A DNA stretch of 64,000 bases from Gammaproteobacteria bacterium (lineage in GTDB: Bacteria; Pseudomonadota; Gammaproteobacteria; UBA12402). Shown here piece by piece: positions 21,001-39,000 of the stretch; position 1 is the first letter of the stretch, and each line of letters starts with the position of its first letter. Position numbers: made by a program. The stretch is from positions 16,437 to 80,436 of the forward strand of contig JAFGHQ010000042.1 in NCBI GenBank assembly GCA_016930035.1, given 5' to 3'.

Positions 21001-24000
21001 AAGGAAGAAAATCTCGAACTCGAAGAAGTTACCATCTTATTCATCAACACAGATGGATACATAGTATCTTTTTCCTTGACAATACTTTCGTCAGGAAAAG
21101 TATTTGTCCAAAAAATATATATAAAAACAAAAAGTGGTTCTACTTATTTAATTAAAGAAAAACTTATAATAAATAACCGGGGAGAAATGATTTTTCCCAA
21201 AATAACTAGAGAAAAAGTTATTCCCAAATATGAAAAAAACTATTATGAAGAACTAAATGATCCGTTAATATTGGATTATAACGTATTTTATGATCCTTCT
21301 AAATGGGCTGAAAAAGTTTTTTTTAAAAAAAATGCTATTACAGCCATTCATAGCTTAGATAAAGATCGGGAAGAAAAACATCCATCTTTTATAATAGCCG
21401 CAGAAGAAGGAGAAATTTTCTTTTTAGAACTTTTCAAAACCAAAGAAAGAAAAAAGTATCATCAAAAAAAAATAGCTGAGGTTAAACCGCTCAAAATTAT
21501 TGGTTTCTTTGAAAAAGGTGATTGTTTAATAGCCTTATCGGAAACCGGGCAATATTTACTATTAAAAATAAACACCCCATCATATAAAGTGCTCAAAATA
21601 AAATCGCTCGACAAAGAACCCGAACACGCACTTAAAAAACTCACCAAAAAAATATCGAATACCCCAGATATTGAATCAATAAATATTAATAAACTTTTGA
21701 ATAAATTATTCGGGGAAAAAGACTGGGAAATAGCACGACGTTTTTTAGACAATTTAGTTGAAAAATTATTTGAAAAAGGATTAGCCGAATTAGTGATAGA
21801 TACCTCTTTATGTAAATGTTTTTCTCCCAGGGATCGACGTCAAATAAAAGCCAGTGTTATAGAAAGAATCTTGGTTCAGTTAGATAAAGGGAAATTAAAA
21901 AAATTAAGATCGAATATAAAAAATCTTCTAAAAAAAATAAAAAATTTAGAGGGAGAAAATTCACAATACTCAAAGATTAGAGCACAGCTTATGGAAATAC
22001 TAAAAGCAATATTAATACTCAATAAAAAATCCCCCATCCCTAAGAAAAAATTAAAAAAACTTAATCAAGAATTAAAAAAAATAGAAGAAAAAATACAAAG
22101 ATCCAAAAGTTTACCCGAATATCGATCACCAAAAAAAACACTTATACGGCCCGCCATAAGCCTTCCAGAACCACTGCCGACTGTTGAATCCACTGAAATC
22201 TTTAAACGAGGGAGACATCCCTTTTTTAGCACTAAAAAATTTAAGGAAACAGAAACAACAGAGGAAGACAAAAGCTTAAAATCGTCCAATTGTGCAGCAT
22301 CCAATATAACAACCGACAAAAGTGATTCGGAAGAATTCAGCTTTTCATTAGATCCTGATTTAGACCCTAATGGTTCAGAAGAGGAAGCGTTAAAGCCAGG
22401 AGATCTATCTTTGAGCAACTTTGAGGAGTTTAAGCCCCCGGAGACAAAAATAGGGTTTTAATTTACTAAAGCAAAAGGTGTTAGATTCATTTGCTGCATT
22501 CTATCTCTCCGAACTGTACAATATAGCATTTCCAATTAATATTTAGACAAATATTGTCACCAGGCCGTCATTCAGAGGCGGCGCTGTGCGCCGACGAAGA
22601 ATCTCGCCTTTGAGATTCCTCGGTCGCTAACGCTCCCTCGGAATGACAGCGAGGGCGGCGCTCCCTCTGAATAACAGCAATGGCGGGGCGCTCCCTCTGA
22701 ATAACAGCAATGGCGGCGCTCACTAGGAATGACAGCGAGGGCGGCGCTCCCTCTAGATGACAACCTCTCGTTTAAAAGTTAATTGGAAATACTATGGAGC
22801 TGTCGAAATCTGCCCATTTGTCATCCTGAACTTGATTCAGGATCCAGTAAAATCAAAGACTTATAATCTTTGATTTTTTAAAAAAGTTTAGCTTTCAACA
22901 GCCTCACTATCGATAATAAATTTTGAAAGAAAACATAGATAAAAACAGAACACCTTGAAAAATGAACCTACCTAATTACGAAAAAAACAACATCGTTAAC
23001 TTGATGAGCGCCATTGCACAAAGTTTCGACCGAAAATCCATTTATAAACCAACAGATCTGATCTCGATCGAGACCTTAAAATATGCCAAAAATATTGTTT
23101 TAATCATTATTGACGGGTTGGGTTATGAGTTTATGACGCGACAAGGCCAAGGCTCATTTCTGCACGAACACCTCGTCGGCCAGATGACCTCCGTTTTTCC
23201 CACCACAACCGCCTCGGCAATCACATCATTCGCTACCGGCGTGGCGCCTCAACAGCACGCATTTAGTGGATGGTTTTTGTGGTATAAAGAACTCGGCACA
23301 CTTTGTGCCAGCCTTCCCTTTGCTCCGCGCATCGGGGGAACCCCCTTTGATCAACGAAAAGAACGAAAAATTAAAATTAAACCCCTATTAGGTGCGGATA
23401 GTTTTTCAGATCAATTAGGTACAAGCACTTATCTAATCATCAAAAAAGATATTATTCATTCCTCATTTAACAAAACTTTATTCAGCAAATCAAAAAAATT
23501 TCCTTATAACTCACTGACAGGATTCTTTACTCAGATTAAAAAAGCAATTTCTGATCATACTCATAAAAAATTTATTCATGCTTATTGGCCAACTTTCGAC
23601 GCACTATCCCACAAACACGGCGTTCAAAGCGATGTGGTAAAAAAACACTTTGAAGAAATCGATAAAAAAATACGAAATTTAGCAAAAAATGTGAAAAATA
23701 CAAAAACCACGCTCATTGTGACGGCAGATCATGGATTAATAGACACCAGCCCTGAAAGGATTATGCGCCTCGAACATCATCCCAAATTGCAAGAATGTTT
23801 GGTCATTCCGCTCTGCGGCGAACCGCGCGTCAATTACTGCTACGTGCGACCCGATAAAACGAAACAATTTGAAGACTATGTGAACTCTAAACTAGATTCC
23901 TATGTCACGCTCCATAAAAGTGCAGATCTTATTGGAAAAAACTATTTCGGTCTCTTCGATCCCAATCCAAAACTCCTCGACCGCATTGGCGATTACACTT

Positions 24001-36000: not shown

Positions 36001-39000
36001 AAATCAATAAATATATATACGCCTGGCAATTCAGCTACAGGCACAACCACCACGCTATTGCGATATTTAGCTGAGCTACCGACAATTGTTTCTATACATG
36101 CTTTTAAACCTCCTATTTCGTATCGGCGCATTAATTTAATTTGTCGTGTTTTTTCTCTGGCTAAATCTAGTGGGGTTCTTCTTTGGCGATCGAAGGTATC
36201 TAATTTCGCTCCTGCTTGAAGCAGTAAATCAACAAGAATTAAATCGCCTTGTTCTATTGCTTGATGTAATAGGCTATTGCTTTGACGATCTACAATGCTG
36301 GGATTTGTGCCGGCCCGCAATAAATCTATGACTAAACTATAATCTCTTTCCTCCTGAGGCTTCTCCATTTCTTTTTCAGCAGCAAGATATAATGGCGTTT
36401 TCCCTTGATAATCCCTTGTATTGAGCATCTCAGGAAATGCTTTTACTAAATACGATATCAATCGCTGATTTCCTTCTAACACCGCAAGATGAAGCAAATT
36501 TCTATCTAAATAATCCTGGAATTTCAGTATTTTTTTCTTACTTAAGACGGCTTTGCAAACGCTGCCTCCGGAATCTTTATAAAAAATCGTCAATTGATGT
36601 TTTGTTTCGTCAAGGTACAAAAGAATTTCGTCTGGCTTTAAAGCGCTCAATTTTGGCCTCAATTCTTCTTTATTGATAGCAATTGCTTTAACCTGCTTTC
36701 CTGTATACGGACGGGTTGCTCTTTGCGGATGAGGCTTTCGCGGAAATAAATGATCAGGCACCTGGCCAAAATCTGAGATCTGGTGCAAGAATGCATCCTT
36801 TTGTACTGGACTTAAGTTATCAAAATCTTGGGGTAACCCATAACAAAGAGAGAAAAAGAGGTTGACTGCTTCCACAGCTTTTTCTCCTCGTTGTTGGAAA
36901 CCAAAAATTAAATCAGCCCAAGAATTAAGTTTTTGAGAAACAGGTGCTGATTCCAGCTTTTTTTTGTGCCATCGAATAAATTCCTTTGGTTTCATGCCGT
37001 CGGGTAATGCAACATCTCCACCCCTTTCTCCCCAAGGCCTAACGCCCAAATCTAATTCAAGTTTATTTTCTAAAAAAGCAGGGTTATAAAAAAATTCAGG
37101 GATTAATTCAGGAAGTTGACTTCCTTCATTCGTAGCTTCGAAAATATTATCTTCGTCTTTTGAAATATCCCACAATAATCTCCCGGGTATGTCAAATTTA
37201 CCGCTTTGCAATTTAATATTTGATAAAGGGTTCTCTCTTAGCAAAAAACGACTAACATGTCCCGCAATTGAATACGAGGTCCCCCATATAAACGGTACAG
37301 TACTGGGATCGGAATCATCCAGGATCTGCTGCTTCATAAACTTAAATCGCCCTACCCCAAATCTCCTCCTATCGTCTCTTAGTGCGCCTAGTGATTTCGA
37401 TAAATCTCGGTATTGTTTTTTGAGATATACCCAAGGAAAAACTGGGTATCTATTTAGATCATGAAAAGATCTGCCGGCGGCTTTGTTAAGATCCAGTAAA
37501 TATTGAAAGTTGGATATGTCGCCTCGCAACCATTTTTTTTGACGTGCTTTAATCCATTTTTTGGGATCACGAACTACACGTGAGCGCGGTAATTGCTGTT
37601 TGATCCGTTGTCTTAATTTTCTCGCGTCTTCTAAACCCCGTTTTGTGGGAACATACTTTATGACAACCTCATCGCTGCCCCATTTGTAAGTGATAATTTG
37701 ATCTACATTCCCCTCTTTTTTTTCATCAAAACAATCTAACAAAATACTCGTGCCATCAGTAAAAAAGATCTCTACGCCTGGGTGAATGGCTTCTGTAGTT
37801 CGATCAAAAACAGATTCGATCTCGTCCAACGACCATGATCTTTCTAATCCTGTTTCCGGGTTTGATAGATAAACTCGATCCTCTTCTATTCGAAGCTCGC
37901 TGGGTATCCGTGTTTCATTATCTAGTTCGTGAATTTTATACATGGGAATCTTACTCCCTGTAGTATTTCCAATTAATATTTGGACAAGAGGTTGTTATCC
38001 AGAAGGAGCGCTGCCATCGCTGTCATTCCGAGGGAGCACTAGCGACCGAGGAATCTCAAAGGCGAGATTCTTCGTCGCTTCGCTCCTCTGAATGACAGCC
38101 TGGTGACAATGTCGGCGCATAGCGCTGCCTCTGAATGGACAGCCTGGTGACAATGTCGGCGCATAGCGCTGCCTCTGAATGACGGTATGGTTACCATTAT
38201 TTGTCTCAATGTTGGAAATACTATAAGTTTCTCTTTTTATCTTTATTAACAAAAATTAAAGACAAGTTGCTACAGTAAAATAATAGTACAAATTTAACAA
38301 AAAAGCTTTTAAATAAAGGATAAAAATCAAAGATTATAAGTCTTTGATTTTAATGGATCCTGAATCAAGTTCAGGATGACATGACCTGTTATGTAAATTT
38401 CCATGTTGTAACTGGAAATTTACATAAATCGGGGGCTACATTTATGAGTCATTTTTTAGCTCCTTTAAAAAAATTTCAAAAAATATTCAACACGCCAACT
38501 CATAATGCAAATTTGATTTATGGGGGCAAAGATACTTTTATACAAAATGGTTTTCGTATTTTTTTCTTGGGATACCTTTCAGTCACAATGGAAGAATCAG
38601 GTGCTAGCTCATGGCAAACACTTTTAAATCAAAACGGGGAAATATAATAGTAACCTGACTTCGATTAGCATTTTGATATAATTAAAAATTAAGAATGAAA
38701 AATTAAAAATTCATGTGTCGCTCCCGCCTTCGCCCCGCACCCACGTGTGTGGTTCGGGGCGAAGGCGGGAGCGACACCGACATTTAAAATCTAAAATTTA
38801 TAATTTAAAAGTTTATGAAGATTTTTAATTGATACCTAATCCTTAAACCTTTATCGAAATTTTGTGATTTTCGTATATTTGATTTTTAAATGCGTTTGCC
38901 ATGGGTGCTAGCTCCGACCGGGGGAGTTTAATCATTTAAAAAGCTTTTGGCGTTTAGGGGATTCTTCTGGGGTTTCTTTATTCTGTAACTCACTTGATCC

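Follow-up and report, generated by a model that had tools for sequence, protein, structure and literature searches.

What kind of element is it that lies twice, in opposite orientation and some 15 kb apart, in a contig from an uncultured gammaproteobacterium, and does the pair act on the DNA between its two copies? The window considered here is the whole 64-kb stretch that was analysed, part of a metagenome-assembled genome (MAG; contig JAFGHQ010000042.1, proteins MBN16842xx). The original prediction, a reading of the bare sequence, held that two inverted elements of about 270 bp, bounded by terminal inverted repeats (TIRs), bracket an effector-rich segment that they could invert. The two elements are indeed there, at the positions and in the orientation described. 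The reading preferred here, with a probability of roughly two in three, is that a non-autonomous fold-back element, resembling a miniature inverted-repeat transposable element (MITE), inserted twice and independently between genes, which gave the two copies, designated A and B. The element would then be a previously undescribed member of the MITE or modular intergenic repeat kind, fairly ordinary as such elements go and of low to moderate interest. The window proteins that were checked are all singletons at 90% identity, with no close strain for comparison.

Copy A spans 22522–22795 on the plus strand (274 bp) and copy B 37959–38225 on the minus strand (267 bp), on the evidence of repeat comparison, nhmmer, and DNA folding. 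Alignment of the two regions gives three inverted blocks, with a similarity far above chance: 85 nt at 93% (22592–22676 with 37993–38077); 77 nt at 84% (22718–22794 with 37961–38037); and 43 nt at 86% (22553–22595 with 38155–38197). The inverted similarity reported earlier is therefore real, but the pairing then given for it (22560–22640 with 38040–38140) was wrong. The longest exact identity between the copies is 38 bp (22592–22629), nhmmer matches one to the other at E = 7e-25, and a 37-mer from the core has two exact matches in the window vs. 0 expected. Searched with either copy and with a core profile, the 64-kb window yields two full copies, one half-core fragment, and nothing else.

Terminal inverted repeats of 16–17 nt are present in each copy, as predicted, but not in perfect form at every end. 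Of the four ends, three carry the terminal 16-mer TTAATTGGAAATACTA with no more than one mismatch: it is exact at 22779–22794 (+) and 37961–37976 (−) and has one mismatch at 22524–22539 (−), while the copy B terminus at 38212–38225 is short of 4 nt (TTAA) relative to copy A. In copy A, the left TIR occupies 22522–22548 (+; TATAGCATTTCCAATTAATATTTAGAC; 26-nt arms, 85%) and the right one 22770–22795 (+), ending in TTAATTGGAAATACTAT; a TA at 22524–22525 stands immediately before GCATTTCC on the left, and another is found at 22793–22794 on the right. The left terminus of copy B, with its 4-nt deletion, is at 38209–38225 (−; TATAGTATTTCCAACATT). The consensus for the TIR pair is TATAGyATTTCCAA...TTGGAAATACTAT, and both copies carry TA at both outer sides (TA/GyATTTCC...GGAAATAC/TA), in copy A after removal of an insertion at its tip that is described below.

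Between the termini the two copies share one order of parts, A read on the plus strand and B on the minus strand: left terminus (TATAGyATTTCCAA(TTAA)...GACAAAT), one or more X units, a central hairpin, one or more Y units, and right terminus (CAACCTCTyGT...TTAATTGGAAATACTAT). The X unit, of 44 bp (ATTGTCACCAGGCyGTCATTCAGAGGCrGCGCTrTGCGCCGAC), is single in A (22553–22595, +; ATTGTCACCAGGCCGTCATTCAGAGGCGGCGCTGTGCGCCGAC). Copy B has two full units and a third, diverged or truncated one, together at 38081–38197 (−); Tandem Repeats Finder (TRF) recovers 38081–38181 of these, with period 44, 2.3 copies, and 96% matches, and the diverged third unit reaches 38197. The Y unit is 28 bp (CGCTCCCTCTGAATGACAGCGAGGGCGG), in 4.6 copies in A (22631–22762, +; TRF period 28, score 162, 80% matches) and about two in B (37991–38039, −; one full and a terminal partial). 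The hairpin core, the same 38 bp in both copies (CGACGAAGAATCTCGCCTTTGAGATTCCTCGGTCGCTA), is at 22592–22629 (+) in A and 38039–38076 (−) in B, and is made up of GAAGAATCTC-GCCTTT-GAGATTCCTC, then GGTCGCTA. X and Y are related as reverse complements and carry the mutually complementary 12-mers GTCATTCAGAGG and CCTCTGAATGAC, so that the element as a whole makes a nested palindrome, GC-rich inside its termini and capable of folding back on itself.

The tandem arrays of the original prediction are real in the assembly, with unit numbers that differ between the copies, but the period of the first is 28 bp by TRF and not 32. As the X and Y counts in A and B differ, instability of array length is plausible. 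Strain typing by variable-number tandem repeats, also proposed, is plausible in principle, but a practical scheme has no support at present in this uncultured lineage, a singleton at 90% identity. The units are contiguous, without spacers, and a CRISPR or iteron-like array was rejected on that account.

Folded as single-stranded DNA, copy A has z = −4.05 and copy B z = −6.49. When the two strands are folded as RNA, their stability is much the same (z from −6.9 to −8.9), which is the behaviour of a DNA palindrome and not of a strand-specific RNA. The element is non-coding: its open reading frames (ORFs) are all of 85 aa or less, and a search with those of 85 and 63 aa against 5.8 billion proteins returned no homologue and no further copy of the element.

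Both copies are intergenic. Copy A starts 60 nt past the stop of a 666-aa orphan ORF (20461–22461) and lies upstream of a phosphodiesterase gene (22962–24122, +). The right terminus of copy B is 15–17 nt upstream of the ATG (37943) of a gene for a BEACH+ankyrin protein (34602–37943, −), with room between them for the ribosome-binding site only. Bacterial MITEs such as the Correia/NEMIS elements of Neisseria are likewise short, non-coding, and intergenic, with TIRs and a long hairpin, and sometimes stand immediately upstream of genes. A and B resemble these in every one of these respects, their length being well within the limit of about 600 bp for MITEs, and possibly also in a TA duplication; they differ in having no known cognate insertion sequence (IS), in their two copies in the window, and in an interior that is a GC-rich nested palindrome of expandable sub-repeats. 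The likeness is one of architecture, and no sequence similarity is claimed.

That MITE transposition has been active in this genome is shown by another repeat family, fam1, of which one member (22796–22905, +; 110 nt) has landed on the very end of copy A, between two copies of a 5-bp target duplication, ACTAT (22791–22795 and 22906–22910). The duplication includes the last bases of copy A, which is therefore older than the fam1 insertion, and it allows the original right flank of copy A to be reconstructed.

A possible history of the element can be put together from its parts. Its TIRs enclose the nested palindrome, a central hairpin with flanking arms bearing inverted 12-mers, and may be the ends recognised by a transposase encoded elsewhere and acting in trans; the TA at the outer sides would fit an enzyme that duplicates TA. 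The X and Y arms have grown or shrunk separately in each copy, presumably by replication slippage or by unequal exchange at hairpin-forming direct repeats. The opposite orientation of A and B would most simply be due to chance, with no functional unit made of the 15 kb between them. A side effect may be felt by the BEACH-ankyrin gene: with copy B directly before its ribosome-binding site, the transcript would have to start within the 270 nt of hairpin-rich sequence or read through it, and copy B could affect expression of this eukaryote-like gene. If this history is right, the arms of a MITE can consist of sub-repeats that are able to expand and are complementary to one another.

Relatives of the core were found outside the window. 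Five contigs from Joint Genome Institute (JGI) metagenomes (L005–L009; 52–59% GC; their genes are ordinary chromosomal ones, among them yidC and jag) share with A and B a nested hairpin core of about 75–90 nt around the hairpin 20-mer. This 20-mer was matched exactly in the metagenome scan, and its invariance is by construction; the blocks outside it that are invariant in all five are GTCATTC, CGAAG, TCGGTCGC, and GAATGAC. A consensus fold keeps the nested hairpin, with a compensatory change in one of 24 pairs, which places the conservation at the level of sequence. In three of the contigs (L005, L008, and L007) the core has, close by, termini that resemble the ends of the window copies (TATAGCGTTTGCCAA / GGAAATACCATA, or TATAGCGTTTGCC... 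/ ...GGAAATACCATA). The five differ from the window copies in the GC content of their hosts and in their inner arms (GGTTCACTTAAGG...), have no X or Y arrays, and appear to be nested in or beside other repeats. That a related core occurs in environmental bacteria of much higher GC content is a modest clue to horizontal spread or to a common recognition protein.

Around the core in the three contigs with similar termini, other short repeats are dense (L005 716–1030, L008 364–700, L007 260–400), with palindromes of the GGGGGATTTAGGGGGATTT and CCCCTTTTTCAAAGGGGGA types, and the core-bearing repeat is apparently inserted in the centre of, or beside, a further palindromic element. The edges of the core-bearing repeat in L008 show a direct repeat of 10 bp, CTCCTAAATC, rather than TA.

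Against 185,579 GTDB species genomes the hairpin 20-mer had two matches, with no surrounding similarity and attributable to chance. A looser motif, GTCATTCNGAG-N13-GAAGAATCTC, is found in three viral contigs, one of which (L014) has a full nested hairpin of like design; the motif therefore recurs in unrelated DNA. A literature search on the motif strings brought up unrelated primer and vector matches only and attached no published name to them; one on the sequencing run found nothing.

Several points weigh against a MITE-like element. Only two full copies were found, both within the one 64-kb window, and with the half-core fragment these do not establish multi-copy dispersal. The searches of the window, of plasmids, and of other sequence brought up no autonomous IS or cognate transposase whose ends match: the sizeable ORFs of the window (≥150 aa) have no transposase, integrase, or invertase domains, and blastn of copy A against the PLSDB plasmids gave no match. 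The TA at both sides of both copies could be a target-site duplication, but, being palindromic, is indistinguishable from a 2-nt extension of the TIRs, and the relative in L008 does not fit TA duplication. There is no empty site for comparison, the nearest relative being non-syntenic at the insertion sites. The array lengths come from one assembly, and a second one, Logan, breaks inside both copies. Finally, the similar termini in L005 and L008 may belong to an outer element that holds the core-bearing repeat, so that homology of the termini is suggestive only.

The arrangement of the element has partial parallels in other systems. BOX elements of pneumococci are modular, with the structure boxA-boxB(n)-boxC; A and B are similarly modular, with an internal unit number that varies between copies and end modules that may fold back. 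They differ from BOX in varying two units (44 and 28 bp), one per arm and related as reverse complements, and in their low-GC gammaproteobacterial host, and the comparison implies no kinship in sequence. In Drosophila, the Foldback (FB) elements, which are eukaryotic and of kilobase scale, also have inverted arms of tandem sub-repeats, in numbers varying between copies; given the difference in size (kilobases vs. 270 bp) and in domain of the host, this is an architectural analogy only.

Closer in detail are the repetitive extragenic palindromes (REPs), found as doublets in REPINs (REP doublets forming hairpins) and bacterial interspersed mosaic elements (BIMEs) and mobilised by REP-associated tyrosine transposases (RAYTs). 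These offer the alternative that survives best, unlikely as it is: that the unit proper is the GC-rich nested palindrome, with two inverted GTCATTCnGAGG motifs around a hairpin, copied by a hairpin-specific single-strand enzyme (RAYT, an IS200-IS605-type HUH transposase, or similar) or kept as a protein-binding or transcript-stabilising site, and that the AT-rich termini are a carrier or incidental. The inverted doublet is there, as GTCATTCAGAGG and CCTCGGAATGAC around the central hairpin, although this is resemblance only, and A and B share with REPINs and BIMEs the tandem amplification of units and the intergenic location. The much better conservation of the core than of the arms, in the 38 bp identical between A and B as in the invariant metagenome blocks, is what such a unit would predict, as is the appearance of the full or half motif in other contexts (the half-core in a fam1 copy, and the viral contigs); two of the metagenome contigs, L006 and L009, even carry the core with different outer ends. 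But no gene for a RAYT or other Y1/HUH transposase was found among window ORFs of at least 150 aa, the 5′ GTAG-type signature of REPs is absent, units are direct and not alternating, and both window copies have, outside the palindrome, the well-matched AT-rich TIRs that one expects of cut-and-paste MITEs. Nor do the reference genomes give evidence of a high-copy REP system, the GTDB matches being chance ones, and covariation of paired bases is close to nil.

A related idea, also unlikely, is that the core of 75–90 nt (GTCATTCnGAG ... GAAGAATCTC-GCCTTT-GAGATTCyTC-GGTCGC ... CTCnGAATGAC) is an autonomous functional or mobile module, recognised by a hairpin-specific enzyme or binding protein. It would be moving between bacteria of 37% and of 52–59% GC, being captured in different TIR carriers, with its arm motifs amplifying into arrays. 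The window element would in that case be a chimera peculiar to its host, within a class of hairpin repeats that is widespread and undescribed.

A role in cis, with the element transcribed together with the downstream gene as a structured 5′ leader, or donating a promoter or terminator as Correia and ERIC elements do, is a rather doubtful explanation. Both copies are co-oriented with their flanking genes, the right end toward the gene start: A faces the phosphodiesterase start at 22962 (+), from which it was about 50 nt distant before the fam1 insertion, and B faces 37943 (−), without room for a promoter between it and the ribosome-binding site of the BEACH gene. A common orientation of two copies is, however, expected by chance in 50% of cases. 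A promoter and terminator scan was within the expectation from shuffled sequence (0 sites in A; 3 in B vs. 3.3 expected), the fold lacks strand asymmetry, and Rfam gave no match at the gathering threshold and, at a permissive one, only chance-level matches (E > 0.3) to the window elements and their metagenome relatives. In the gene-sense strand, moreover, the central stem has an A-C mismatch, which is a G-U pair on the antisense strand only.

It is very improbable that the copies, though real, owe their array lengths or even their linkage to short-read assembly of a MAG. The grounds for suspicion are in the Logan assembly of the same reads (SRR13394437), which agrees 100% with the window up to 22582 and 38034 and then breaks inside both elements; near them its contigs stop at 22582, 22859, and 38034. 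Its contigs L001, L002, L010, and L011 end at repeats or low-complexity AT-rich stretches generally (20356, 22582, 22859, 24726, 27043, 38034, 38681, and 40462). On the other side, the array units are non-identical (80% matches in A), so that reads can order them; the outer parts and flank junctions are 100% alike in the two assemblies; and A and B, with no exact match beyond 38 bp, can be separated by reads of 100–150 nt. The terminal 30-mers of the Logan contigs are unique within the window, and the breaks are therefore due either to copies elsewhere in the sample or to hairpin or coverage effects; they hint at further copies of the element and prove nothing. In this bacterium the short-read contigs stop right at these repeats; knowledge of the repeat families helps to explain the fragmentation and is a warning not to read too much into linkage across them.

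Least likely of all, and not upheld from the original prediction, is homologous recombination between A and B that flips the 15.2-kb segment and makes it structurally polymorphic: the pair is inverted, and its 38-bp exact stretch, within 85 nt at 93%, is about the minimum length for RecA-dependent exchange, but GC skew over 22796–37957 (−0.083, vs. −0.085 and −0.073 in the flanks, and negative on both gene strands) shows no long-term flip, no site-specific recombinase is among the window ORFs scanned, and fam1 offers longer and more identical inverted pairs (60 nt at 100%, 16754–16813 with 38322–38381; 103 nt at 96%; 118–119 nt at 86–89%), so that A and B are not special as a substrate. Invertible segments of the Hin, Gin, or Fim type have a recombinase in or beside them; here no serine or tyrosine recombinase domain was found anywhere in the window, the stretch of 18–43 kb included. 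The adjacency of ahcY and ykuD inside the segment is kept in a relative, which speaks against a cassette. Logan contigs end before the informative core junctions and say nothing on inversion. A composite transposon with inverted IS copies at its ends was likewise rejected: the elements at its ends do not code for protein, the segment is like the flanks in GC content (0.384) and in skew, and the same gene adjacency is kept.

The segment itself was called effector-rich, a label that is overstated and fits only in part. Besides three ordinary enzymes (the phosphodiesterase, L,D-transpeptidase YkuD, and AhcY), its genes encode the 1113-aa BEACH-ankyrin protein, the only one with eukaryote-like domains, and five orphans; weak, sub-threshold SMC-like matches of the coiled-coil type are seen in two of the orphans. 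The nearest relative found, a contig from the same sequencing run (L012; AhcY 81%), conserves ahcY and ykuD only and carries none of the repeats.

The BEACH-ankyrin protein (34602–37943, −; 1113 aa) has PH_BEACH/BEACH domains (E = 4e-69) and ankyrin repeats, a eukaryote-type combination, here in the MAG of a gammaproteobacterium; the ankyrin portion resembles models of Legionella Dot/Icm Ank effectors, with scores far below their cut-offs. The bacterium is probably host-associated. Within the segment there is also a 45-bp tandem duplication (31732–31814; 1.9 copies of GGAGGAGGAGGAGTG...), in frame near the 5′ end of a 1153-aa orphan gene (28431–31892, −). On the left, at 16961–19882, a tRNA cluster (Ser-GGA, Arg-CCT, Ser-GCT) and a 167-aa fragment of a serine dehydratase precede a gene for an AAA_14/DUF4143 ATPase; another AAA_14/DUF4143 gene on the same strand (41927–43285) closes off the right side, and the orphan-rich region between them, which holds A and B, may be a variable island. 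Just beyond copy B, at 39106–40240 (−), a gene with helix-turn-helix and SocA/Panacea antitoxin domains overlaps a 125-aa orphan ORF, and the two are likely a toxin-antitoxin pair.

The fam1 family, one copy of which marks the end of copy A, is a genuine MITE. It is about 110 nt long, with the TIR GGGGCTGTTrAAATCTG and two internal hairpins, and has seven complete copies with paired TIRs in the window: 9423–9532, 16731–16841, 22796–22905, 31924–32033, 34440–34571, 43438–43547, and 44102–~44283. The 5-bp target duplication is perfect in five of these copies (AAATG, ATAAA, ACTAT, CTTAA, and TACAA), and in one more 4 of 5 positions agree. The GGGG-initiated TIR and the 5-bp duplication we take to resemble those of Tn3-derived miniature elements.

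Two further fam1 copies are degenerate. One, at 38296–38399, is without TIRs, and its internal 60 nt are 100% identical to 16754–16813. The other, at 26890–27026, is a mosaic with two partial left TIRs, and its first hairpin is replaced by the half-core of A and B (GTCATTCAGGGCGCAGCGAAGAATCT; 26954–26987, +; nhmmer E = 1.2e-4); hairpin modules seem to have been exchanged between the repeat families. A larger composite inverted repeat, of the element together with fam1, was rejected, the order A-fam1 ... B′-fam1′ not being mirrored.

A third repeat, fam2, is the palindrome TTGGTGTCWGACACCAA, present in nine copies vs. 0.01 expected in the window (17-mers at 108, 8191, 10639, 14836, 20360, 24708, 26104, 27044, and 45576). 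Several copies extend to a near-perfect palindrome of 38 nt (ATGCAACTTTTGGTGTCAGACACCAAAAGTTGCAT). All are at or near ORF ends, one of them overlapping the TreS stop codon, and these sites, too, are places where Logan contigs break; fam2 may represent REP-like repeats, may act in termination, or may be an operator site.

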